Source: Candidatus Tayloriibacteriota bacterium
GTDB lineage: Bacteria > Patescibacteriota > Minisyncoccia > Phycocordibacterales > PALSA-1337
DNA: 64,000 nt
Direction of reading: 5' to 3'
Assembly: GCA_016215455.1 (NCBI GenBank)
Contig: JACRJP010000003.1
Span: 124-64,123 of the forward strand
The position numbers were made by a program, and so were the translations under genes. Under the pieces are notes generated by a model. That model was given only the letters and a program-made list of their open reading frames with translations. It was not told where the DNA came from and searched no databases. Positions 1-62,736 of the stretch are shown piece by piece (position 1 is the stretch's first letter; every line of letters starts with the position of its first letter).

Positions 1-741
1 GGTACTTGCGTAGGGGAAAGTGTTGAGTGCTGTTGTTGTAGCAGTGAAGTTTGCTCCGACGACTTGGCCAACGACTGAGAGAGCTGCGTATGGTGAGGTG
101 GTACCGATACCAATTTTCCCTGTAGAAAGAGCTGTAAATACATTAGCACTTCCCTGTCCTAACAAATTAAGAATACTACCAGCACCAGCCTGACTGAATG
201 TTACAAAGTTAGATGCTGTACTTGTTGAATTTGTTGCATCTGAACGAAGGAATTGTGCTGAATCATACCCTTCGAGTGTTTTTGCTACAAAAGCAGCTGG
301 AACAGCTCCCAACAATTTACGTGGAGTCATTTCTCCATCCCATGACGGTGTATTTCCTGAACCTCCAATATTAATACCGAGATAGAGTGTCTGATTGAAA
401 TCAACACCAGTAAATGCTGTTGTACTTCCGAGCAATGTACTAAACAAACCACTTGTTATCGGAATACGATTATCAGTTCCTGTTCCACTACATGCTGTAC
501 CTTTACACCATGTTTCAGTCCACAAAGGTGAACCACCTGTTGGTGTTGTATAGAGTTTAAATTCAATATTGTAACTTCCATCAGATACCGCAACGTTACT
601 ACTATTAGTAAGTTTACCTTGATAATTAATTTGCTGATTAAATGCTGCACGAGCAACATTTGTAGTACCTAATCCAAATGGCAATACCATAACGCCACAA
701 ACGACACTCAGAATAAGTGTCCTTTGTGCTACATATTTCAT
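1..741 (-). CDS. Secreted surface protein, N-terminal part only (gene continues beyond window start)
   Basis: Manually translated from ATG at complement of 739-741: MKYVAQRTLILSVVCGVMVLPFGLG... signal peptide, then a beta-rich Thr/Gly/Ser-rich region with the motif NYQGKL...DGSYNIEFKLY...GGSPLWTETW recurrent in large uncharacterised surface proteins. Open to the window edge; not in the ORF track because it is truncated. Confidence 0.5.
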   Translation of the reverse strand, partial: MKYVAQRTLILSVVCGVMVLPFGLGTTNVARAAFNQQINYQGKLTNSSNVAVSDGSYNIEFKLYTTPTGGSPLWTETWCKGTACSGTGTDNRIPITSGLFSTLLGSTTAFTGVDFNQTLYLGINIGGSGNTPSWDGEMTPRKLLGAVPAAFVAKTLEGYDSAQFLRSDATNSTSTASNFVTFSQAGAGSILNLLGQGSANVFTALSTGKIGIGTTSPYAALSVVGQVVGANFTATTTALNTFPYAST

Positions 742-758
742 TATAGAAATATAGTTTT

Positions 759-2183
759 TCACGTTATGTAATGTTTAATCTTCCGCACAACAAGTCGCAC
801 AAGCAGGAGAAGAGCAATGATAATAAGAATGAAGATCACGATTGGGATAATGAAATCAACAACATCGTATCGAGGTTCTGGATTCTTGGTTGATGTCTCT
901 GATATATCGTGTGGCACGATAAATGCTCCCTCGAGTTTTTTGAGAGATCTCTGTTTATAATCGAGAATTGTGATACTAAAATTATACGTCCCTGCTCGTT
1001 CGAAATTATCGAGAGTTGTTTCATACGCTGTCTTTTCTTTATTTAAATGAAGAAGATATGCATACTTTTTATTATTATTAGTAGGATCTTGAATAGTAAC
1101 TGCTACTGTTTTGAGGTTTTCAGGCAACTTATCATACGCGATCGATAATGTGACATTATCTCGTTCATCAAGTTGAATTGAACTCTGTGTAAATGATATT
1201 TTTTCTCCACGTTGTTTGAAATCAAAATCAACAAGATTAACTGTAGTAGAAGCTTTTGTTCCAACAACAGGCACTAAAGGAAATTGAGAAAAAGGATCAG
1301 GTACAACAGGAATGATAATTACTGACGAAGTCGCATCAGGTGCTTGAGTAATCTTTGTAGGAACAATAATTTTTACAACAGCACCTGATGAGTAATTCCC
1401 TGCATAATCACGAGCGAATGCTGCATAATAATATGTTGCACCAGATTTAATACTTGAGTCAGTTGTATATGATCCTCGTCCTTCATATACCACCTTTCCA
1501 TCAAATGGATCTTTTGGAAAGAATGTCTCGGAACGCAAAACTCGAACAACATCGAAATCGTTGTCACTTGGATTTCTCCATGTAAGTTGGATTGCATCGC
1601 CTCTGATCGTACCTTCAAGTCGAGAAATATTTGCAGGAGCTGAAGAGTCAGGGATAGCAAGAGTGATGAATGCGAGACCCTTTACACTTGTTACTACCTG
1701 ACGAGTATCTTGACCATCAATACGGAAGTAATATGTTTGATTTGGAAATAGGTTTTCTATTTTAACACTGTGATTATTCGCATAGTTAATCTCAGATACG
1801 GTGCCGAGTTCATAATCATTCGTAAGTCCCCATGCCAAAGTTCCGATAGAAACACGATTTGTTTTCCATGTAATAACAACTGAAGTAGCCCCTGGACGAA
1901 CTTCAACATCAGACAATATGAGATTTGCGTACGAAGGAGTACTACCGCCACTCGATCCACTTGGTGTAGGAGTGATACAGTCATTTGAACAATTTGAAGT
2001 ATTCTCTCCAAGAGAGCTCTCACATATATTATTGTTATTACAACCCTGTACATTAAGCTCCACTTCAACATTTGAGGCCTGTCCTGAATATGGCAACACA
2101 ACACCAACCACGCAGAATGTAACCGCTATGAGCGTTGCAAATCGGTGGAGGAGTTGGTTTGTTGATAAAGAAGAGCTTCGCAT
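759..2183 (-). CDS. Membrane-anchored surface protein with Fn3-like (purple-acid-phosphatase N-like) beta-sandwich repeats; signal peptide plus C-terminal TM anchor
   Basis: 474 aa. N-terminal hydrophobic segment, Cys/Asn-rich stalk, repeated W-K/R-N-P and YYF/YYY beta-sandwich motifs (ITWKT..., LTWRNPSDNDFD..., YYFRI, TYYYAAFA). C-terminal IIPIVIFILIIIALLLLV followed by a basic tail. Confidence 0.55.
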   Translation of the reverse strand: MRSSSLSTNQLLHRFATLIAVTFCVVGVVLPYSGQASNVEVELNVQGCNNNNICESSLGENTSNCSNDCITPTPSGSSGGSTPSYANLILSDVEVRPGATSVVITWKTNRVSIGTLAWGLTNDYELGTVSEINYANNHSVKIENLFPNQTYYFRIDGQDTRQVVTSVKGLAFITLAIPDSSAPANISRLEGTIRGDAIQLTWRNPSDNDFDVVRVLRSETFFPKDPFDGKVVYEGRGSYTTDSSIKSGATYYYAAFARDYAGNYSSGAVVKIIVPTKITQAPDATSSVIIIPVVPDPFSQFPLVPVVGTKASTTVNLVDFDFKQRGEKISFTQSSIQLDERDNVTLSIAYDKLPENLKTVAVTIQDPTNNNKKYAYLLHLNKEKTAYETTLDNFERAGTYNFSITILDYKQRSLKKLEGAFIVPHDISETSTKNPEPRYDVVDFIIPIVIFILIIIALLLLVRLVVRKIKHYIT

Positions 2184-2191
2184 AATGTTTT

Positions 2192-2932
2192 CTATAATGT
2201 CGTTGCGGTGACAATAACCGTTGTACTATAACTTCCTGCATCCTGAATCTTCGAAGTACCTATAGCTGCTCGATACTTAATGGTGGTAGTTGCTCCGTTT
2301 GGATGGTTTGAAGATGCTCCTGTTGCAACAATTTTATTTACCGTAGAGAGACCGTCCCAACACTTATCAACCGTGTCTAAACCTCCTGCATTACAAATTG
2401 ATCCATTGTCACGAAAACGTGCATCGACATCGACTCCTTCAGGAGTGAAACCGAACCTCGATTCGGTTGCTGCATAGGTGTAATCGTAATCAGGATCAGC
2501 TCCACTTGGTGCATAGTCATCAAAACTTGCACCACCTGGACCTTGCAATGCAGGACTTGTTACCGAACGAACTGAAAGTGTATACCCTGCCGCATTGTCA
2601 GTAAGAACTGTCCATGTACTTGAAGCAGTACTAAAACCTCCAGCCAAACCATTCAAACTTGGAAGAGCGTCATCATTTGGAGAAGTAATCGAAATATATG
2701 AAGATTGCATTTGTTGATATCCTGCATACATTGAGTACGATGTACTTGAAGAAAAACCAGTACCAATTTCTCCCATCGTCGCATCATCTTTATAGTTCGT
2801 ACTCTGACTTGGTGCTCCACCGAAATTAACTGAATCTGAATTCATACGATAGCTTGAACTTCCCATAACAAAAGCTTTGAGACTTACCGGCACTATGAGT
2901 GTGAGTATTGTTATAAGAAGAATAAGTCGCAT
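2192..2932 (-). CDS. Secreted beta-rich protein, WxL-domain-like (paralog of 3961-4629)
   Basis: 246 aa. Signal peptide. Shares with the 3961..4629 product the motifs TW(T/N)V.T(D/N)N..GYTL(S/T)V and (T/L)KYR near a Thr-rich C-terminus (...TTVIVTATTL vs ...TATITATATTI). Confidence 0.5.
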   Translation of the reverse strand: MRLILLITILTLIVPVSLKAFVMGSSSYRMNSDSVNFGGAPSQSTNYKDDATMGEIGTGFSSSTSYSMYAGYQQMQSSYISITSPNDDALPSLNGLAGGFSTASSTWTVLTDNAAGYTLSVRSVTSPALQGPGGASFDDYAPSGADPDYDYTYAATESRFGFTPEGVDVDARFRDNGSICNAGGLDTVDKCWDGLSTVNKIVATGASSNHPNGATTTIKYRAAIGTSKIQDAGSYSTTVIVTATTL

Positions 2933-2940
2933 ATGTAATG

Positions 2941-3948
2941 TTATACTTTTCTCTTAAATTCAAATCGACTTGCAATGTAGTATCCCAAACCAACAACGAA
3001 CACGATCACACCAAAGAGAGCTGCGAGGATTTTCCATGGAATTACCCAGAATGTGACAACTCGTTCATCAACGATATTGCCGTAGCCTCGATTCAAGTGA
3101 AGCGTTGCTTTGTAACGTCCAATGAGATACACCTTATCCCATTCAACACTACGATAGCGGAGAGAGTTAGGAAGTGAGAAGTAAGCATCGACTGGAAGTG
3201 TCGTGACTTTCCGGCCGAATGTATTGGTAATATCAACAGTACCAAATGGTACAAGGTGGATAGAACCACTGTTATTGTAGAGAATTTCAAAGGTTGTAGG
3301 TCCTTGCTGTCGGATAAATGAAGTACTTGGCTGGACTCGAAATTCTTCAACTGATCCAGATTCATTTGCATCTCCATTTACTCGAACAAAGAAAAGAACT
3401 CCCAATCGAGAAATTATCTTATTTTGAGCAACTGTTTGAGAATTCTGTGCAGACTGTTCATCTTTATCTGGTTCATTCGAGATAAGAACTGATGAATAGA
3501 ATCCTCCTGGCTGTGCGTCTTGTGGAACATTGATCGATATAGGAATATTGATTCGCTGTCCAAATTCAAGAGTAAACTCACGTACCTCAGGAACAAGGTT
3601 GTCCTTGAATGAGTACGGACTCTTATCATTTCCAAGAAGCACGACCGGCTTATCAATATCTCGTGAACCCACGAAGTCTTCCACTTCTATCTTAAAGTGT
3701 ACCTTTCGTTTAATACGATTTGTAATACTGATACTTCGTGTCACCGATTCTCCAGGATTAAGGAACACCTCTACCTTACCCGGTTCAAGAACAAAGTCGT
3801 TTTGTTCAGTCACAGCTACAGGAGCAAGTGTAACCGCGTGAACATACTGAGGTATCGCAACAACACCGAAAGCAACCATGAGACTTATTCCCAATCCGGT
3901 CATATATGAAATTGTTCGAGAATGTGTAGTCATAATAATCTTCTTCAT
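2941..3948 (-). CDS. Cell-surface protein with DUF916/DUF3324-like architecture (CscA-like): signal peptide, two beta-sandwich regions, C-terminal TM anchor plus basic tail
   Basis: 335 aa. N-terminal signal/TM (GLGISLMVAFGVVAIPQYVHA). C-terminal WKILAALFGVIVFVVGLGYYIASRFEFKRKV anchor. Internal acidic/Gln-rich linker. Sits between the two WxL-like paralogs, as in Firmicutes csc loci. Family assignment is from pattern recall, not a search. Confidence 0.45.
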   Translation of the reverse strand: MKKIIMTTHSRTISYMTGLGISLMVAFGVVAIPQYVHAVTLAPVAVTEQNDFVLEPGKVEVFLNPGESVTRSISITNRIKRKVHFKIEVEDFVGSRDIDKPVVLLGNDKSPYSFKDNLVPEVREFTLEFGQRINIPISINVPQDAQPGGFYSSVLISNEPDKDEQSAQNSQTVAQNKIISRLGVLFFVRVNGDANESGSVEEFRVQPSTSFIRQQGPTTFEILYNNSGSIHLVPFGTVDITNTFGRKVTTLPVDAYFSLPNSLRYRSVEWDKVYLIGRYKATLHLNRGYGNIVDERVVTFWVIPWKILAALFGVIVFVVGLGYYIASRFEFKRKV

Positions 3949-3960
3949 ATGAAGAATTGA

Positions 3961-4629
3961 TTAGATTGTTGTTGCTGTTGCTGTGATTGTTGCAGTGTAG
4001 GTACCAGAGTCAATGTAAATACCTTTTTGTTCGACTGCATAACAAAGAGTTGTATCAACTCCTGATGTTGTTGTAGTAGAAGAACGAGTTGCAATTGTTG
4101 GACTTGCTGATGTAGTAAATCCTCGGTACTTCAATGTTGTTGATGGAGTACTTGTTGCACCACATGAGACACCTCCTGTAGCTGTACCGTATGTACTTGT
4201 GTTTACATCAGTTCCAAAAGCACTGTAACCAAATTCTGCTCGACCTGTTGGAATCGTACTCCACAATTCCGGTGTAGTTGTTGTTGCAAAGTCATTCACA
4301 TACTGTGAACCACTAACACGCATTGCTGGGTTTGTTGAAGCCGCAACAGTGAGTGTGTATCCAAGTACATTATTTGTCTTCACGTTCCATGTAGTAGTTG
4401 CAATTGCTGTGTTCACCGCAGCACCCAATGCTGTACTCATTGTAGTATCAGCTGGACTGGTGATCGTAATACCTGTATCAACTTGCAATGTAACGACAAC
4501 ACTATCAGTTGCTGTCGCCGCATCAACAAGATTTGGTTCAAGATATATACCACTTGCAATAAGCACTAATGTAACAATGAGAGACATTCCCAAAGTCTTC
4601 TTTAATGTTGTTATTGTAAATTGTTTCAT
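3961..4629 (-). CDS. Secreted beta-rich protein, WxL-domain-like (paralog of 2192-2932)
   Basis: 222 aa. Signal peptide. Conserved TTWNVKTNNVLGYTLTV and TLKYRGF motifs. Extremely Thr/Ala/Ser-rich. Confidence 0.5.
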   Translation of the reverse strand: MKQFTITTLKKTLGMSLIVTLVLIASGIYLEPNLVDAATATDSVVVTLQVDTGITITSPADTTMSTALGAAVNTAIATTTWNVKTNNVLGYTLTVAASTNPAMRVSGSQYVNDFATTTTPELWSTIPTGRAEFGYSAFGTDVNTSTYGTATGGVSCGATSTPSTTLKYRGFTTSASPTIATRSSTTTTSGVDTTLCYAVEQKGIYIDSGTYTATITATATTI

Positions 4630-4732
4630 GTTGATAATTTTTATTCCTAACTACTGAATGATGAGAGCACGACCTCTCTTCACATTCATGTGTCGTGAAC
4701 CAACTCTTGGTCCACCACACATGAACACGAAG

Positions 4733-5620
4733 CTACTTTTTCACAGGCACAACAACATACATATATTTGTCATTCGTTTCTTTTTTAAATACTGGCTGAA
4801 TAACACCTGATACTCCTGTATCATCTGACCAGATTTTTACTTCATCAGAAAAATTTTCCTGAACTGTTGTCTTTACCTGTGTATCAGTAACAACATCTCC
4901 TGATGAGGCAACAACGACCATACCTTGATACGTACCGTTACTCATGCAGTAGTCATTAGCTGAATGACATACTGGCTCACCACCGAATAGTGGTGAGAGG
5001 GCTGCATACTCGATAAGAGCAAGACGATTGACGAGAGTTACAATTGGTACGACAACATTTGCAACAAGACCTACCTGAGATGAAGGAGTAACACCGGCAG
5101 GTGTTCGAATAACTTCAATATTTGATGTCGCAACTGTTGGTGTTGGAGATGTTCGTACTTCACTCAATGTTTGAGACTCTGATGAAGTTAGGTATGAAGG
5201 TAATGCCACGATCGAAAGAAGGACAAAAGTAAAAACACCGACAGCAACCATAAGTGCCGCAGGAGAGATTTTTGGAATTGGAAATGAAATATGATGTGAT
5301 GAAGATTTCTCTTGAATAGTATTTGTAGTAGGTGGAGTTGTTTTCTCTGAATCAATTTTTCGAACCATTACTTCATGAACATTGAGAGGTTGTGCTACGG
5401 GCTGACTAGGCACTGAAATCTTTTGATCGAGTGTTCGAACATTCTTCTCGTAATTGAGGATGTCTTGTTCAGCAACAAACCACACTCGACCAACTCGGCG
5501 AGAATCAATTTTTGATCCTCGACAAAGCTGACCGATGTAGTCAGATGTATATCCTGTGAGAAGCGACGCGCTCTTCGCAGAAATATATTTCTTGCCTTCG
5601 AAAATAAATTCCGGGTGCAT
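4733..5620 (-). CDS. Bitopic membrane protein with N-terminal cytoplasmic HTH (excisionase/MerR-like HTH_17) and extracytoplasmic Thr/Val-rich domain; putative membrane-tethered transcriptional regulator
   Basis: N-terminus KYISAKSASLLTGYTSDYIGQLCRGSKIDSRRVGRVWFVAEQDI resembles HTH_17. Single TM (ISPAALMVAVGVFTFVLLSIVALP). Large C-terminal periplasmic/extracellular part. Confidence 0.45.
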   Translation of the reverse strand: MHPEFIFEGKKYISAKSASLLTGYTSDYIGQLCRGSKIDSRRVGRVWFVAEQDILNYEKNVRTLDQKISVPSQPVAQPLNVHEVMVRKIDSEKTTPPTTNTIQEKSSSHHISFPIPKISPAALMVAVGVFTFVLLSIVALPSYLTSSESQTLSEVRTSPTPTVATSNIEVIRTPAGVTPSSQVGLVANVVVPIVTLVNRLALIEYAALSPLFGGEPVCHSANDYCMSNGTYQGMVVVASSGDVVTDTQVKTTVQENFSDEVKIWSDDTGVSGVIQPVFKKETNDKYMYVVVPVKK

Positions 5621-5650
5621 AGTGGTAGTGCAATTATTATACGGCAGAGA

Positions 5651-5895
5651 TATCGAACCGAGATTATTAAATCTCGGAAAAGCTGGGGATAAGTTCGGAT
5701 AGCCGAGAACAAAATATTTTAAGCCATATACTTCCGATATCTCGGACGAGATTATTACGTAAATATTTTTGTATCTCGGATAGTTTTTTATAGTAATTTT
5801 GTATATAAAAATTATTTACATTACTACACCTTATTTAGAAATATAGTGTGTATAAAAACGCTAAATAAAAAATATCTCGGCTACCCGAGATATCC
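5651..5895. promoter_or_regulatory. Array of ATCTCGG / CCGAGAT heptamer repeats including a perfect palindrome ATATCTCGG-CTAC-CCGAGATAT (5872-5893); putative operator region upstream of the HTH-TM regulator gene
   Basis: Motif copies at 5658-5664 (CCGAGAT), 5671-5677, 5738-5745, 5772-5779, 5872-5880 plus inverted copy 5885-5893, within a 308-nt AT-rich intergenic region immediately 5' of the minus-strand gene 4733..5620. Confidence 0.4.
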
Positions 5896-5928
5896 TTATA
5901 TTATTTAGTTCTTTTTCAAAAAAACTCA

Positions 5929-52899: not shown

Positions 52900-54081
52900 T
52901 TATTCAAGTTTTGCGAGAGGTAGAACTTTTTTCAAAACTTTTGCAAACTTTTTAATATCACCACGTGTTGTTATTCGGCCAAACGAGAGACGAATTGATG
53001 ACATGGTTGCTGCGCCAATTGCTTTCATAACATACGATTCATCACTATCACGTAGACATGAACTTTTAGTTGAGCAAGCAATTCCATGAGCATCAAGTCG
53101 AAGCATGAGAGACTCGGCATCATAGCCTGGAAATTCAATATTCAGTATATGTGGAGACACAAGAGCTGCGGCTCCATGAGCGTGTGCTGTAGGAAGAATT
53201 TGTACACATTGATCACTAGCAAATTTTCGAAGGTCTGTAAGACGAGCTATTTCAACAACTCTTTCCTTTTGAGCAATTTCTAATGCGTATACAAATCCCA
53301 TGATTGATGGAACATTTTCGGTTCCCGAACGCAGTCCTTTTTCTTGTCCTCCTCCGTATATAGTAGGTGCACACACTACACCTCGACGAATATAGAGCAT
53401 TCCAATTCCCTTTGGACCATATACTTTATGAGCATCAAGCGTAAGAAGATCAGCTCCTAGTTTTTCGAGATTAACTTCATTACACAAAAATGCTTGGCTC
53501 GCGTCAGTATGAAAATATGGAAAAGCTTTTCCAGATTCCTTGCGAACATGTCGAATGGTTCGAATAATTTCTTCAAGAGGCTGTACTGTTCCTATTTCAT
53601 TATTCACATACTGTACTGAAACAAGAGTTGTGGTTGGAGAAAGTTTCTTTTTAAATTCTTCGATATCGAGTACACCTTCATGTGTTACACCAATAACATC
53701 AAGCTTCGCACCTCGTCGCTCCAATTCATAGAAACATTCGAGTACTGATGTATGTTCAATCGAAGAAGTAATAATATGAATATCTGAGATAGAGATTCCT
53801 GCATTCAAACACGCCTGCACGACTCCCATGATGCCAATATTATTTGCTTCAGTTCCAGTTCCTGTAAAAATAATTTCATCTGCATGAGCACGAAGAAGTT
53901 CTGCAACTTTTTTCTTTGCTGTATCAAGTGCAGCATGAGCAGCGACACCTTCACGATGTAGTGAAGATGGATTACCTATCTCATTTCGATACCATTTCTT
54001 CATGTGAGAAAGCACCCGAGGGTCAGTCGGAGTCAATGAAGCGTGGTCAAGATATACTCTGCTATTGAAAAAATGAAACAT
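52900..54081 (-). CDS. Cysteine desulfurase (aminotransferase class V, NifS/IscS-like)
   Basis: SSIEHTSVL, LDAHKVYGPKGIGMLYIRRG (PLP-Lys), C-terminal SSCL active-site Cys loop (CSTKSSCL). Confidence 0.8.
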   Translation of the reverse strand: MFHFFNSRVYLDHASLTPTDPRVLSHMKKWYRNEIGNPSSLHREGVAAHAALDTAKKKVAELLRAHADEIIFTGTGTEANNIGIMGVVQACLNAGISISDIHIITSSIEHTSVLECFYELERRGAKLDVIGVTHEGVLDIEEFKKKLSPTTTLVSVQYVNNEIGTVQPLEEIIRTIRHVRKESGKAFPYFHTDASQAFLCNEVNLEKLGADLLTLDAHKVYGPKGIGMLYIRRGVVCAPTIYGGGQEKGLRSGTENVPSIMGFVYALEIAQKERVVEIARLTDLRKFASDQCVQILPTAHAHGAAALVSPHILNIEFPGYDAESLMLRLDAHGIACSTKSSCLRDSDESYVMKAIGAATMSSIRLSFGRITTRGDIKKFAKVLKKVLPLAKLE

Positions 54082-54151
54082 ATGTGTGATGTAACGAGTA
54101 TATCCACAAATTCCTTTGCTGGCAAAAGCATATCACGTATATACTGTACAC

Positions 54152-54619
54152 ATGCCTACAGACATCACATCCATTCTTATCGGTGCTCTCATACTATGTG
54201 TCATCATTCTTGCGACACTCGTCATTCGACTTGAAATCAAACTCAAGCGCTTTTTAGTTGCAAAAGGTGCAGTATCAATCGATGACTCTCTCACCAAACT
54301 CTCTAGTGACACAAAAGAATTACAAACCTTCCGTACCGAACTCGAAAGCTATCTCAAGACTGTCGAAAAGCGTCTACGACGAAGTGTTCAATCAATTCAT
54401 ACTATTCGTTTCAATCCATTCAAAGGAACAGGAAGTGGTGGTAACCAAAGTTTTGCGACTGCATTTATGAATGAAGATGGTGACGGTGTTGTTATTTCAA
54501 GTCTCTACTCACGAGAACATGTGAGTGTCTTCTCAAAACCTGTTAAAAAGTCTGCATCTGAATACGAACTCACTGTTGAGGAAAAAACAGCGCTCACGGA
54601 AGCAAAAAAGACTCTCTAG
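54152..54619 (+). CDS. DUF4446-like membrane-anchored protein
   Basis: N-terminal TM then RFNPFKGTGSGGNQSFATAFMNEDGDGVVISSLYSREH matches my recollection of DUF4446. Confidence 0.45.
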   Translation: MPTDITSILIGALILCVIILATLVIRLEIKLKRFLVAKGAVSIDDSLTKLSSDTKELQTFRTELESYLKTVEKRLRRSVQSIHTIRFNPFKGTGSGGNQSFATAFMNEDGDGVVISSLYSREHVSVFSKPVKKSASEYELTVEEKTALTEAKKTL

Positions 54620-54627
54620 CAGCAACA

Positions 54628-54656
54628 TTGACAACTAGTCAAATATATGCTATTAT
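54628..54656 (+). promoter_or_regulatory. Sigma70-like promoter (TTGACA-N17-TATTAT) at the start of a GC-rich islet
   Basis: Exact -35, near-consensus -10. Confidence 0.4.
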
Positions 54657-54777
54657 GGCTTCGAATAGCCCTTTTACAACACGTATGGAAATACGTTGCA
54701 TTGCCGTGTGGCTGTGCATTGTTTGGGCTTTCTTTGTTAGTGAAAAGGACCTCTGAATCTACTCCCGCCATGACTCC

Positions 54778-54958
54778 CCAAAAACTTCTCATTACCCTTT
54801 GTGTGTTGGGTGCCGCAATCATCACTGTGATGGTCGTCACTCCGAAGCGTCAGGTTGTCGCAGGACAACCCGCTGTCACAGAAACCAACATCATCAATCT
54901 CAAGGCTCACGCGACTGTGAGCTTTGGAACACCAACAACGAACAACATCAATAAGTAG
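54778..54958 (+). CDS. Small signal-anchored protein (60 aa), uncertain
   Basis: MTPQKLLITLCVLGAAIITVMVV... Start chosen downstream of the promoter. The track ORF 54647..54958 begins inside the promoter. Confidence 0.25.
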
Positions 54959-55005
54959 TCCTCAACAAGCATCACAAGCAACGCAACCTCTCAACAAATC
55001 CCACA

Positions 55006-56130
55006 ATGAAACTCAATACCGTCCTGGCCAAGCTTGCCTTGGCACTCGCCCTCATCACCATGTCCGCCACGACTCGCTCCCTCGCGATCGAGTCTGTCGA
55101 GTCCTCATCGCGCCCAGCTGTGGAAGCCATCCCGCTTCCCACGCATCTGGCACCCTTCCTCCGCACGGAGGAAGACCTGATCGCGTTTCTCAGCCTGATG
55201 CAGCGGTCGGTCAGTTACGGGCTTTCAGCCAATAGCGGACAGACCTGGGAGAACAGTTCGGGTCGCAAGGTCTGGACTCAAGCTCCCTCGCAACAGGAAA
55301 TCATCGATACCATCGAGGCATCGAACCTCAACATCGGCGTGTTGAACCCGAACGATCGTGTGTCCTTCTGGACCTACACCTACGACGGACAGGGACGTCC
55401 TTTGTTCAGCGCCGGCGACTCAAAGTTGCCATTCAACGACAAAGGTGGTTGGAGTTTGCCCGAGTTCCATCTGAACTTCCGGCCCTACTACCAGTTCCCC
55501 CTGCCGCGCTACGAAGGCGTTTATGCGGCCGAGATCCTGGCAACCGACGCCCAAGGCCGCACCCGCGACCAGGAATGGTTCAACCAAGACGACGACGGCG
55601 TGATCCTGATGGACAGCTACCTCGCCAGGAAAAACCTCACTGGGTTCCTCGTCTTCCACATGGAGGACGGTTCCTCGCGGAGCTATGACCTCACAACGGG
55701 CAACGAAGTGTCCCAGACCAATCTGACGGCCGGAGCGAAGGCTTCGTTCGACGGCTCGGTCTCCTTCAAGGACGAAAACATCGTGCTCAAGCTCGACAGC
55801 GAGAACGGAATTGGCGAAAAGAAAAACGTTCAACTCCGCACGACGGTCAAAGGGACCTACAAAATCAAAGTCAGCACCGCGGAGGGCAAGTATCCCTTGC
55901 ACTACCGCGTGTATGCCGAAGAGAATGGCGTCATTGCAGCTGACAACATCCACTACGGCGAGAACGAAAACGGACAGACCGGAATCGAACTCGACTTCCC
56001 GATCGGCCTCTTTACCTTTGTGCCGGTCTGGAACGTGGCCGATTTCCGCGAACCGGGCGACTGCCCGCCGGGCTACACATGCTCGGGCGACGGTTACGGC
56101 AAGGGTGTGGTGGAACCCGCCACCAAGTAA
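55006..56130 (+). CDS. GC-rich secreted hypothetical protein (signal peptide; no recognisable domain), likely horizontally acquired
   Basis: 374 aa. Signal peptide MKLNTVLAKLALALALITMSATTRSLA. About 58% GC with GC3-rich codons, unlike flanking genes. Followed by an intrinsic terminator. Confidence 0.6.
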   Translation: MKLNTVLAKLALALALITMSATTRSLAIESVESSSRPAVEAIPLPTHLAPFLRTEEDLIAFLSLMQRSVSYGLSANSGQTWENSSGRKVWTQAPSQQEIIDTIEASNLNIGVLNPNDRVSFWTYTYDGQGRPLFSAGDSKLPFNDKGGWSLPEFHLNFRPYYQFPLPRYEGVYAAEILATDAQGRTRDQEWFNQDDDGVILMDSYLARKNLTGFLVFHMEDGSSRSYDLTTGNEVSQTNLTAGAKASFDGSVSFKDENIVLKLDSENGIGEKKNVQLRTTVKGTYKIKVSTAEGKYPLHYRVYAEENGVIAADNIHYGENENGQTGIELDFPIGLFTFVPVWNVADFREPGDCPPGYTCSGDGYGKGVVEPATK

Positions 56131-59955: not shown

Positions 59956-60002
59956 GGTTGTAAGAAAAGATCGGTCCGTGTTTCTAAAGTTACTACATTC
60001 AT

Positions 60003-60084
60003 ATGCCGGGATGGCGAAATTGGCAGACGCACTTGCCTTAGGAGCAAGCGGGGTAACCCATGGAGGTTCAAGTCCTCTTCCCGG
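60003..60084 (+). tRNA. tRNA-Leu (anticodon UAG), type II
   Basis: Acceptor GCCGGGA/TCCCGGC, anticodon stem CTTGC/GCAAG, loop CTTAGGA, long variable arm, T-loop TTCAAGT. Confidence 0.8.
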
Positions 60085-60172
60085 CACAATCAAGATACTC
60101 AACACTTAAAAATGGCTTCAATAAGCCATAAATTTACCTTACAACATCCATAGACATCCGCCAATAGATCTA

Positions 60173-60202
60173 TTGACATGTACCAATGTTATATGCTATA
60201 AT
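60173..60202 (+). promoter_or_regulatory. Sigma70-like promoter (TTGACA-N18-TATAAT-AGTA) followed by a hairpin-rich ~140-nt leader
   Basis: Exact hexamers. The leader 60205-60343 contains nested inverted repeats (GGTTCTCT...AGAGATCC; GAGC-ATTA-GGCTC; TCGCT-TGT-AGCGA). Confidence 0.45.
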
Positions 60203-60343
60203 AGTACCAGAAGATTGGATTAGGGGTTCTCTGAGCATTAGGCTCAGATGAGCCTACAGAGATCCTTGAAACATTCGACCTTCGACTAGTGCGTCGCTTG
60301 TAGCGATGTTAGTCAACCAAAAATTCGGTTAGCTCGACATACC

Positions 60344-61402
60344 ATGCCTACTCCTGCCGCTCCCGCCTCCCCTGCCTCGACCCCTGTCACTGGTCCGAAG
60401 TATACGGCCGCCCAAATGGCGGATAGCAACTTCCATCCGGACCAACTGAATGACAAGTCAGGGAAAAAGTTAACAGGTGGCGCTCTTGCCGCCCGTAAGG
60501 TTGCTCTCCTGGATTTCCAGGAAGCTGCACTTTCTTTTCCATCCGCTCCTGCTGCAAGCGCTGCTCCGGCAGTTCCTGCTGGAACGCCTGCCGCTACTCC
60601 TACCCTGCCGGCTACGCCCTCAGGGGGAGTTTCGCGGACCCACATCATGTGGGCGATCGTGATTCTCCTCTTGGCGTTGCTTGGACTGACTGGCTGGCTC
60701 GCAAAGTCCTACCTGGACAAGCGCACGCCTGCCGCCTCTTCACCCGTCGGTGGAGCAAGTGGTGGTCAACCTGTTGCGTCGGAAAGCAATGGGATTACTG
60801 GAATCATCCCCGCCGGCTCCGTCACGAACGTGACGGAAGACGTTGAAAAACGTCGAATCACCCTCACTGGCGACGTTCTCGTGACCAACGTCACGAAGCG
60901 GATTCACACCACTACGGTCACAAGCCCTGGTGGTGCTGGAAATCCTGGAGGGTTCATCCTGAACCAGACGATCCAGCAGTTCAACGGTAGTGGTCAATCG
61001 ACCCTTCCCACCAATGACTGTCGGACAAATCGGTTCGGCGGCGTGAATCCCAGGATGTCGCCCGAGGTTGCTCGGCTGGCCCAACAAGGCAAGCTGAAGA
61101 CCTACGAAGCATCCGAAGACGGCACCTTGCCCCAGTGTATTCATGTGCCGAGTGGTGAGGCTGCGGTGATCCTCATGCCGGAACACATGGACCTCGTCAC
61201 TCGCCAGCTCAACCGGCGCAACATTGCTGTCTACTTCGACGAGCGCACGCTCGAAGAGGAAAAGCAGCGAATCGCGAGTGGTGTTCCCTCAATCTCGGAA
61301 CGAGTCTACCTCGTCAACCGAGACCAAGGACTCACACCTGCGCAAGTCGCACTGCTGTGGAGCAACGAAGGTTCGAATGAGGGTTTGGTTGCTGCTCGAT
61401 GA
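60344..61402 (+). CDS. GC-rich Pro/Ala-rich bitopic membrane protein (cytoplasmic PA-rich N-terminus, one TM, extracytoplasmic domain)
   Basis: About 60% GC. PAAPASPASTP / APAASAAPAVPAGTPAATPTLPATP low complexity. TM IMWAIVILLLALLGLTGWLA. No known domain. Confidence 0.5.
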   Translation: MPTPAAPASPASTPVTGPKYTAAQMADSNFHPDQLNDKSGKKLTGGALAARKVALLDFQEAALSFPSAPAASAAPAVPAGTPAATPTLPATPSGGVSRTHIMWAIVILLLALLGLTGWLAKSYLDKRTPAASSPVGGASGGQPVASESNGITGIIPAGSVTNVTEDVEKRRITLTGDVLVTNVTKRIHTTTVTSPGGAGNPGGFILNQTIQQFNGSGQSTLPTNDCRTNRFGGVNPRMSPEVARLAQQGKLKTYEASEDGTLPQCIHVPSGEAAVILMPEHMDLVTRQLNRRNIAVYFDERTLEEEKQRIASGVPSISERVYLVNRDQGLTPAQVALLWSNEGSNEGLVAAR

Positions 61403-61497
61403 GCACACCTACCCTCGCAGAGGCCGCGGACAAAGTACTAGCAATAGCTACGATGTCCCCGGTCTTTTTATTTATATACAGAGCCATAGATATACTA

Positions 61498-61528
61498 TTG
61501 ACTATACAGCTCATATTATGGTATAATA
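61498..61528 (+). promoter_or_regulatory. Sigma70-like promoter (TTGACT-N19-TATAAT-AGTA)
   Basis: Same TATAATAGTA extended -10 context as the promoter at 60173. Confidence 0.35.
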
Positions 61529-61587
61529 GTATAGGAAAACAACCGAAATCAAGGCCGTGTGGTCTTTGATAACCCCATAGCGATTTT

Positions 61588-62736
61588 ATGAACACACTCG
61601 AAAGATTAGTGGAGTATCTCTACTGTCTACTCAACGGTATACCCCAGACGGTCCCTGTAAATGGAACCGTCGACAACGGTGTCGAAATATTGACGCCGTT
61701 AAACAAGGTCAAAAAGCACCCCATGAATGCTTCGTGGGTATGCGTAATAGCTGGGTGGATCACCCTCTTCCTACACGTATGGGTGCCTAAAGCATTCATT
61801 ACAGGACTCATCTACCACAAGTTTCCCTCGACTGTAAATTACGGTTCGGTTGTGGAAACACTGGGCTGGATTATTGGAGGACTGTGTTTGATTGCAGCAC
61901 TCAAGACCTACCTGTTCGAAGCCATTTTTGTGGCAACCGAAACAGGAAAAGCTCGAATCGTTGAAGGGACTTTTCTGAGCAAGATCAATCCCAAACCCTT
62001 CACCTATCAAGACACCGGCGTTGCTGGTGAACGAGAATATGTTGGACCAGGACTGAAATTTAAGTGGTTCACCAACAAAGTTGATGACAAAAAGGTAGCA
62101 AACCTCGACGTTGTCGTTCTCGATCTGATATTTACTGATCTAGTCACCAAAGACAACTATGTGGTAGGTGAAATCACCACAAGAGTGACCTATCGGACCT
62201 TGTTAGGGTTTGGTCTTCTCAGCCGCTTCACGCGTGCAACAAAAGAAGATCGCGAAAAGCTCATTAGGGCGAAGATCGAACTGTTCTTGCGGCGGGAAGT
62301 AGGTCAGTATCCCTACCTCCAGTTCATGAACTTGGCATTCAAAGAAGGCTTTACCAGCCAACTTCGCGCGAAGATGAAACAAGTCTTCGGCGGTCAAGAC
62401 TATCTGTCTGAGCTCGAGCTGCAATTGGCAATTACAACCGACAACCTCGAAGTAATCGGGTTTGTTCTCACCAAGAGACAACTTGCTGCATTTGAGACAC
62501 AACGCATTGCAGGTCTCATTGCAGAAGTGACTGAAAGATTCTACCGTCTGTGTGGTCTCAGTGACACACAGATGCCTGCAAACCTCACTCCAGATCAAGC
62601 GGCACGAATCGCCCAACAACGACTTCAAGTCATTGTCATGGTCGAACGAATGTTCGCCGATCCCAAGAAACGCCAAGACGTCATCTTTTCGGGTGGCGCT
62701 GGTGGTGTGCGGGGTGGCGGACGGATTGCAGTCTAA
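61588..62736 (+). CDS. SPFH/band-7 (stomatin/prohibitin-like) domain membrane protein
   Basis: N-terminal TM helices, then ARIVEGTFLSKINPKPFTYQDTGVAGEREYVGPGLKFKWF...ANLDVVVLDLIFTDLVTKDNYVVGEITTRVTYR typical of the SPFH core, coiled-coil region, Gly-rich C-terminus. Confidence 0.55.
   Translation: MNTLERLVEYLYCLLNGIPQTVPVNGTVDNGVEILTPLNKVKKHPMNASWVCVIAGWITLFLHVWVPKAFITGLIYHKFPSTVNYGSVVETLGWIIGGLCLIAALKTYLFEAIFVATETGKARIVEGTFLSKINPKPFTYQDTGVAGEREYVGPGLKFKWFTNKVDDKKVANLDVVVLDLIFTDLVTKDNYVVGEITTRVTYRTLLGFGLLSRFTRATKEDREKLIRAKIELFLRREVGQYPYLQFMNLAFKEGFTSQLRAKMKQVFGGQDYLSELELQLAITTDNLEVIGFVLTKRQLAAFETQRIAGLIAEVTERFYRLCGLSDTQMPANLTPDQAARIAQQRLQVIVMVERMFADPKKRQDVIFSGGAGGVRGGGRIAV

Follow-up and report, generated by a model that had tools for sequence, protein, structure and literature searches.

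Two bacterial surface systems, the Pam pilus and the csc/WxL clusters, are among the closest described to the subject of this article. That subject is an operon whose genes at present carry the annotation 'hypothetical', found at the start of a 64,000-nucleotide stretch of DNA (the window; contig JACRJP010000003.1) from a Candidatus Taylorbacteria metagenome-assembled genome (MAG). The Pam pilus was defined by Troman et al. (bioRxiv, 2026; 10.64898/2026.03.03.709456), who solved filaments of Ca. Mycosynbacter amalyticus (Saccharimonadia) by cryo-EM. Its two-domain pilins, PamA (55 kDa) and PamB (39 kDa), assemble by donor-strand exchange; in pilins of this kind (PamA, PamB and PamE) an N-terminal domain is followed by a linker that is the donor strand and by a truncated Ig C-terminal domain. 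The chaperones, PamC and PamD, resemble PapD and FimC and retain a C-terminal transmembrane (TM) helix. PamT is a single-domain tip subunit, and PamR, an RbmA-like protein with two fibronectin type III (FnIII) domains, a C-terminal TM segment and an extra N-terminal strand, is the proposed terminator and anchor of the pilus. There is no usher, a tail-fibre-like gene lies close by and ATP-synthase genes are found near pam operons. Pam systems are reported mainly from Saccharimonadia and Microgenomatia, and the paper mentions neither Parcubacteria nor WxL/DUF916.

The csc/WxL clusters belong to Lactobacillales and Bacillales (Siezen 2006, PMC1534035; Hassan & Williamson 2023, PMC10599100). Such a cluster is recognized by a WxLIP protein (DUF916, DUF3324 and a C-terminal TM segment) together with at least two WxL-domain proteins within four genes. 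Most clusters also encode a small LPXTG-anchored protein, CscD, and their products bind peptidoglycan non-covalently. A hairpin of WxLIP is predicted to insert into the WxL domain and complete its sandwich (PMC10599100), and a WxLIP:long-WxL complex has been solved (PDB 9i25). The predicted insertion is donor-strand complementation in all but name.

Set beside these systems, the operon most likely encodes an usher-less, chaperone-assisted donor-strand pilus, a new, compact and simplified Parcubacterial variant of the Pam pilus. We put the probability of this reading at roughly 60%. The genes concerned, with g6 upstream of them, are these (aa, amino acids; ORF, open reading frame):

1..741, minus strand: g1 (partial, N-terminal 247 aa), a secreted giant tail-fibre-like protein; the window edge cuts the ORF.
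759..2183, minus strand: g2, 474 aa; signal peptide, N-terminal strand, 4-Cys knot, tandem FnIII domains, a variable domain and a C-terminal TM segment.
2192..2932, minus strand: g3, 246 aa; a secreted, PamT-like paralog of g5 with an N-terminal Ser/Tyr-repeat region of ~55 aa.
2941..3948, minus strand: g4, 335 aa; a WxLIP-like/PapD-like two-domain protein with a C-terminal TM helix and a basic tail.
3961..4629, minus strand: g5, 222 aa; a secreted single-domain pilin-like protein, the proposed major fibre subunit.
4733..5620, minus strand: g6, 295 aa; an HTH_17-like N-domain, a TM segment and an extracytoplasmic domain; operon membership uncertain.

The initial annotation of this DNA had described five co-directional minus-strand genes at 1..4629, and the ORF calls bear this out; the gaps between g1 and g5 are 8-17 nt. 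It had also taken the source for a reduced, possibly episymbiotic bacterium and no Firmicute, correctly, as the genome falls in the Patescibacteria/Parcubacteria group; the sequence of g4 has 100% identity to a 'hypothetical protein' from a Candidatus Taylorbacteria MAG. Its broader interpretation, a csc/WxL-type surface complex, survived in part: the DUF916/DUF3324 call and the csc-like arrangement of genes held, the WxL identity did not. A Sec-type signal sequence with an AxA-like site can be read at the start of all five proteins, and the AlphaFold2 (AF2) models of g4 and g5 begin with helices at residues 9-30 and 3-29, respectively.

When species-representative genomes were scanned for the g4 family, 79 loci from other genomes came up, nearly all of them in Parcubacteria/Paceibacteria MAGs (Taylorbacteria, Nomurabacteria, Paceibacterota, Minisyncoccia). 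Gene content was established by hidden Markov model (HMM) searches of six-frame ORFs in 80 loci, the window organism's own contig (L001) included. Wherever the contig extends, the order is fixed: one to three tandem g5-type genes, g4, g3, g2, often a small helix-turn-helix (HTH) gene, and a giant g1-type gene. The g4 gene is present in all 80 loci, g5 in 77, g3 in 76, g2 in 74, the giant fibre-like g1-type gene after the operon in 59 and the HTH gene in 44; across the 79 other loci the ORFs of the core genes overlap or abut. Because this order recurs in 79 loci of other genomes, far beyond chance, the g5-g4-g3-g2 cluster is a genuine conserved operon, and the paralog pair and the anchored protein do co-occur in related genomes, a check that the initial annotation had proposed. 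The 80 loci hold no further conserved gene in the operon that might be an outer-membrane usher. Neighbouring genes for an M23 peptidase, a PG_binding_1 protein and a SET-domain protein were considered as parts of the system and rejected, since they are not conserved next to the operon loci.

On profile and model comparisons, g4 is a remote homolog of the Firmicute WxLIP. It had been called DUF916/DUF3324-like, with a TM anchor and a basic tail. The window protein itself matches nothing in Pfam, DUF916 and DUF3324 included, at E<=1, but the remote homology extends over both domains, and the TM helix and basic tail are there. PF06030 (WxLIP_PGBD, formerly DUF916) is matched by 12 of the 48 g4-family members at E<=1 (best 1.4e-8); the 25 listed families with the most matches in the g4 family, out of 35, do not include PF11797 (DUF3324). 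Searched against Protein Data Bank (PDB) sequences, the family profile finds Enterococcus faecium EfmWxLIP1 (WxLIP1) at E 5.7e-5. As references we used sequences from Firmicute plasmids, seven of WxLIP and nine of WxL, and hhalign aligned the g4 family with WxLIP over 197 columns that take in both domains (93.5% probability, E 2.3e-7). In the AF2 model of g4 (mean confidence, pLDDT, 89.8), a pair of beta-sandwich domains precedes the C-terminal TM helix. Comparison of structures, which the initial annotation had suggested, put WxLIP crystal structures at the top of the Foldseek matches in the PDB: first 9i25_C, the WxLIP from E. faecium locus A bound to a long WxL (E 9e-13), and 9i1y. RbmA came after these, followed by the chaperone-usher chaperones CsuC, CfaA, DraB, FimC and Caf1M (E 7e-9 to 1e-7, ~260-280 columns). 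The fold of g4 is, in the model, that of a pilus chaperone. Two of its features matter for what follows:

3373..3507, minus strand: candidate complementing hairpin of g4, aa 148-192, made of the last strand of domain 1, a loop at aa ~160-180 and the conserved strand IISRxGVLFFIRVNG.
2965..3036, minus strand: C-terminal TM helix of g4 (an AF2 helix), aa 305-328, followed by RFEFKRKV.

The loop at aa 161-180 has a pLDDT of 62-67 within a model otherwise above 90, and it aligns to the loop of EfmWxLIP1 that is the WxLIP hairpin. R181, G183 and L185 are invariant in the g4 family, and W301, P304, W305, F329 and E330 are conserved around the TM helix.

The two small secreted proteins on either side of g4 were said to be paralogs, and so they are. 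The motifs quoted for them, TWTVLTDNAAGYTLSV / TWNVKTNNVLGYTLTV and IKYR / LKYR, are present; g3 and g5 match each other in BLASTP at E 1e-13 and their family profiles align in hhalign at 100% (E 3e-47, 168 columns). They were also said to be WxL-like, a claim we had to abandon. The W-x-L tripeptide is absent from both; PF13731 (WxL) matches neither window protein at E<=1 and none of the 46 + 58 members of the g3 and g5 families; the two families reach 9.9% and 0.9% when compared with the WxL alignment in hhalign, in the last strand only; and no WxL chain stands among the top 60 fold matches of g5. The profiles of the two families returned nothing significant from PDB sequences, which leaves g3 and g5 unconnected by sequence with the WxL chain of 9i25 and with every deposited pilin.

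What the g5 model does resemble is a pilin. It is a single domain of ~185 aa in the mature protein, and its fold-match list contains TLP-2 (7.1), CsuA/B (7.0), CupE (6.4), the FimH pilin domain (6.4), the DUF1102 tube (6.3), CanX (6.0) and TasA (5.0), as well as CfaB. The nearest folds to the model are all donor-strand-complemented fibre subunits, and g5 is, as modeled, a pilin-type beta-sandwich. The core it has in common with g3 begins at residue 50 of g5 and residue 76 of g3, and the two proteins differ N-terminal of that point:

4483..4518, minus strand: mature N-terminal extension of g5, aa 38-49, ATATDSVVVTLQ, a candidate donor strand outside the core common with g3.

This extension of ~12 residues is without regular secondary structure in the monomer model, and its family consensus, VTLTV, alternates hydrophobic residues. 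The pattern, and analogy with pilins, suggest that it may serve as a donor strand. Where g5 has this short extension, g3 has its Ser/Tyr-repeat region of ~55 residues. The C-terminus of the subunit reads G-x-Y-x-[AT]-x-[IV]..., with the Gly 14 residues from the end, which we presume, as a lead only, to be akin to the C-terminal motif of pilins.

The g3 protein gave the most direct connection to Pam, and its match there was the sole lead from direct Pfam and NCBIfam scans of the window proteins. It matches NCBIfam NF058579 (CPR_pilus_PamT; CPR is the Candidate Phyla Radiation) with 38.5 bits and E 8e-10 over residues 3-123, against a cutoff of 240 bits. All 46 g3-family members match the model, the best at 3e-14 and every one far below that cutoff, and the longer g5 homologs P0367, P0374 and P0307 match it at positions 26-238 or 9-239 of 241. 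On these sequence matches g3 and g5 appear to be distant relatives of PamT, by homology and not by equivalog membership. A few g5 homologs (P0284, P0367, P0374 and P0307) are 390-610 aa long, with a C-terminal pilin-like domain and additional N-terminal domains. They recall both the 'large WxL' proteins and the two-domain Pam pilins or tip adhesins.

The Fn3-repeat protein with a C-terminal TM anchor, as g2 had been described, also stood up to closer inspection. Pur_ac_phosph_N is matched in 22 of 25 g2-family members and fn3 in 19 of 25, and the family profile matches tandem FnIII proteins with 2-3 stretches. Two segments of g2 deserve their own entries:

1977..2075, minus strand: conserved strand of g2, (I)xVxLxV, then GCNNNxICE...GE...SCPxDC, aa 37-69, right after the signal peptide.
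780..848, minus strand: C-terminal TM segment of g2, aa ~446-468, read from sequence as the hydrophobic run FIIPIVIFILIIIALLLLVRLVV followed by RKIKH.

L43, V45, C48, C54, E55, E60, C65, D68 and C69 are invariant in 25 g2 sequences, and the pattern holds in 68.

How close, then, is the operon to Pam? Both have a CPR host, Sec-exported parts and an adjacent tail-fibre-like gene, and both lack an usher. The parts list corresponds one for one, in reduced form: g3 is PamT-like, g4 PamC/D-like, g2 PamR-like and g1 fibre-like. For g4 the likeness to PamC and PamD is one of fold and C-terminal TM architecture only; for g2 the likeness to PamR lies in the tandem FnIII domains, the C-terminal TM segment and the invariant N-terminal strand, as read from sequence. 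Both were compared by description. The differences are that the major subunit g5 is single-domain with a short N-terminal extension, whereas Pam's are two-domain with an inter-domain linker strand; that there is one chaperone gene here and two (PamC, PamD) there; and that the host belongs to Parcubacteria/Paceibacteria, with all scores far below NCBIfam cutoffs. NF058581 (Pam_pilin_C) is not matched in the g5 family and is matched by 2 of 46 g3-family members, at E 1e-4. The PamA/B coordinates, 25PZ and 25QA, are not among the structure-search matches.

Similar accounts can be given for other systems. With V. cholerae RbmA, to which PamR is likened, g2 has the tandem FnIII scaffold in common, but it differs in its N-terminal strand with a 4-Cys knot, its third, variable domain and its TM anchor; RbmA is a fold match of g4, not of g2. 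With the chaperone-usher pili (Pap/Fim; archaic Csu/CupE; alternate CFA/I) the operon has in common the two-domain chaperone fold of g4, the incomplete Ig-like pilin fold of g5 and the short N-terminal extension of g5 with its alternating hydrophobics. It differs from them in having neither usher nor outer membrane (CPR bacteria are monoderm) and a chaperone anchored in the membrane, and no sequence-level homology to them was detected. PilB and sortase motifs are absent from the window, bar one chance TLxTC.

We can therefore sketch how such a fibre might be built. All components would be exported by Sec, with g4 staying in the membrane by way of its C-terminal helix. The long hairpin of its first Ig-like domain would complete newly exported, incomplete beta-sandwich subunits, in the manner of PapD/FimC and WxLIP. 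The g3 protein, PamT-like and without the short donor extension, would start the fibre as its distal cap. Subunits of g5 would add at the base, the ~12-residue extension of each entering the groove of the preceding subunit and displacing the chaperone strand. Growth would end with g2, which, by analogy with PamR, may give the last g5 the conserved strand at its N-terminus and tie the fibre to the membrane through its tandem FnIII domains and C-terminal TM helix. The giant g1 would likely be a host-binding partner, acting with or beside the pilus, or else a separate adhesin, and the biological role of the whole would be attachment to a host cell.

Also in favor of the pilus, g3 and g5 share a core yet differ exactly at the N-terminal extension, and Pam pili are real cryo-EM filaments whose PapD-like chaperones are TM-anchored and whose genes have a tail-fibre-like gene close by. 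Several points weigh on the other side. Strand donation is argued from sequence pattern and analogy. The g4 family, the g5 family and the g2 protein match no Pam model in NCBIfam, and the similarity of g3 to PamT is remote (38 bits against the 240-bit cutoff). The single domain of g5 departs from two-domain PamA and PamB, and its N-terminal segment, with a fairly high pLDDT (85) in the monomer model, may lie packed against the domain it belongs to. WxLIP has been described as a stable partner of WxL and not as a transient chaperone. Finally, pam operons are reported to have ATP-synthase genes as neighbours, and the 64-kb window shows none: a crude motif search (by regular expression) found no F1 Walker motifs in it.

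The main alternative is the view of the initial annotation. In a static complex of the csc/WxL type, g4 would be a permanent membrane scaffold holding g5 and g3 and, through them, other proteins, and the product would be a small hetero-oligomeric platform bound to peptidoglycan with no polymer. Several points speak for this: g4 appears a true WxLIP homolog, with domains, TM helix, basic tail and even the long hairpin loop in kind; its gene lies between two small secreted paralogs, the small protein-WxLIP-small protein order of WxL loci; some relatives of the small proteins, in the g5 family, have the conserved domain last, behind extra domains at the N-terminus, like 'large WxL' proteins; and the stable WxLIP:long-WxL complex has been crystallized (9i25). 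The layout first proposed for the locus, WxL, CscA-like, WxL, is thus right in its order and wrong in its outer members, since by motif, Pfam, hhalign and fold ranking g3 and g5 are not WxL domains. Nor is there an LPXTG partner: g1-g6 contain no C-terminal LPXTG (the sole LPxSG is inside the g2 signal peptide) and TM helices are found in g2 and g4, the TM-anchored proteins that the initial annotation saw in its place. The operon also adds an FnIII-TM anchor, g2, and a giant fibre protein, g1, and its host is a CPR bacterium. The closest folds to g3 and g5 are polymerizing pilins; g5 and g2 carry the conserved, short, alternating N-terminal strands typical of donor strands; PamT, a homolog, is part of a system that makes filaments; and g5 varies from one to three copies, as for major subunits. 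Taken together, these points leave the static complex an unlikely account.

Considerably less probable still is a matrix fibre like TasA or the archaeal bundling pili, self-assembled by strand donation without a chaperone, with g4 and g2 as unrelated Ig/FnIII surface proteins. TasA/TapA fibres, archaeal bundling pili and cannulae do assemble without a two-domain Ig chaperone. The window proteins lack the Peptidase_M73 signature, which matches none of the 104 members of the g3 and g5 families; g4 keeps its place between the two pilin genes, in strict synteny, at every locus; and g4 is homologous to a protein, WxLIP, that binds its partner by strand insertion. The TasA/camelysin identity, named in the initial annotation as an outcome that would undo its reading, is rejected on the first two of these counts. 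That the genes merely encode co-transcribed Ig-fold envelope or host-interaction proteins that do not assemble together, such as individual adhesins or cell-wall-binding proteins, is the least credible reading of all: Ig and FnIII folds are generic and most of the individual similarity scores are remote, but all four core genes are strictly conserved across 79 loci, always in one order and with ORFs that overlap or abut, and their specific homology is to two systems in which the components interact physically.

No other part of the CPR is as large, or as little cultured, as the Parcubacteria/Paceibacteria, and we know of no described mode by which Parcubacteria attach to a host. If the pilus reading is right, the operon offers them a concrete, testable candidate for an attachment apparatus, and Pam pili would then reach outside Saccharimonadia and Microgenomatia, in a version simplified to a single-domain pilin and one chaperone. 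Independently of that, the homology of g4 with WxLIP connects two surface systems that have until now been regarded as separate. The csc/WxL clusters of lactobacilli, enterococci and Listeria have been implicated in virulence and gut colonization, and their function has been debated since 2006. The homology suggests a mechanistic reinterpretation in which these clusters could be donor-strand complementation systems. Our literature search found no paper connecting DUF916/WxLIP with CPR bacteria or with donor-strand chaperones.

A bolder proposal, which we hold tentatively and at well under even odds, is that csc/WxL clusters, CPR Pam pili and chaperone-usher pili all rest on one ancient principle and are in part of common descent, with the Parcubacterial operon as a bridge. 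The principle would be that a two-Ig-domain chaperone, membrane-anchored in monoderms, completes incomplete beta-sandwich subunits and hands them over. If so, WxLIP would be a pilus-type chaperone, WxL proteins would be strand-complemented into oligomers or fibres, and chaperone pili without an usher would be common throughout the largest class of the CPR. WxL proteins, too, begin with a short strand and a Pro/Asp-rich linker. In alignment A4, the small WxL proteins from Firmicute plasmids (L081-L088) have a short beta-strand-like segment after the signal peptide, then the Pro/Asp-rich linker and then the WxL domain. Judged by this layout, the N-terminal extension of small WxL proteins could itself be a donor strand.

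Of the remaining genes, g1 was described at the outset as a large secreted protein, only part of which lies in the window, and it proves to be just that. It has a signal peptide, its ORF runs off the window start, and its complete homologs at the same operon position are 450-2490 aa long, secreted and usually without a TM segment. The g1 fragment matches NCBIfam Bdello_MAT_N weakly (E 1e-3). Its homologs match no Pfam domain at all, and their C-termini are low-complexity and acidic or Pro-Thr-rich; one from Taylorbacteria has weak PHROG tail-fibre matches (E 3e-6). The giant homologs contain no g3/g5-type pilin domain at E<1e-3. Repeated 'GNVGIGTTxP' motifs occur in the g1-type proteins, of up to ~2600 aa, encoded downstream of the g2 homolog (L005, L009, L012, L014, L017, L039, L059 and others). 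The g1 gene is cut after ~240 codons both in the window, at its start, and in an independent Logan contig, at its end; the latter suggests an assembly break in repeats.

Relatives of g6 (L013:13196-13594 and similar), either HTH-only or full-length, account for the HTH genes of the 44 loci and sit upstream of g5 or between g2 and g1; one matches PF12728 at E 9e-6. A possible role for g6 is that of a membrane-tethered one-component regulator of the fibre genes. Two features of the DNA around it may bear on regulation:

4686..4724, minus strand: a 17-bp RNA hairpin in the g6-g5 gap (4630..4732), just upstream of the g5 start.
5872..5893: a terminator-like palindrome, ATATCTCGG-GTAG-CCGAGATAT plus a T-run, upstream of g6 (region 5621..5928).

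The hairpin region (116 nt) has a minimum free energy of -40.7 kcal/mol (z -5.3), and no T-run follows the hairpin. A comparably strong hairpin of different sequence occupies the same place in the closest relatives (L001, L002, L038 and L039), and z<-3 is found at this position in 6 of 72 loci. It may act as a partial terminator or as a 5' stabilizer that raises the mRNA of the major subunit relative to the upstream gene. The region upstream of g6 also holds three exact copies of TCCGAGAT at 5671-5780, of only 5 in the whole window, and an inverted pair, CCGAGAT-N6-ATCTCGG; to judge from their sequence, the repeats may be operator sites for g6. Elsewhere in the window, GC content rises to 0.50-0.52 at 54001..56000 and 60001..62000, against a background of 0.36-0.45, and the second of these stretches adjoins a tRNA gene cluster at 58.2-60.1 kb.

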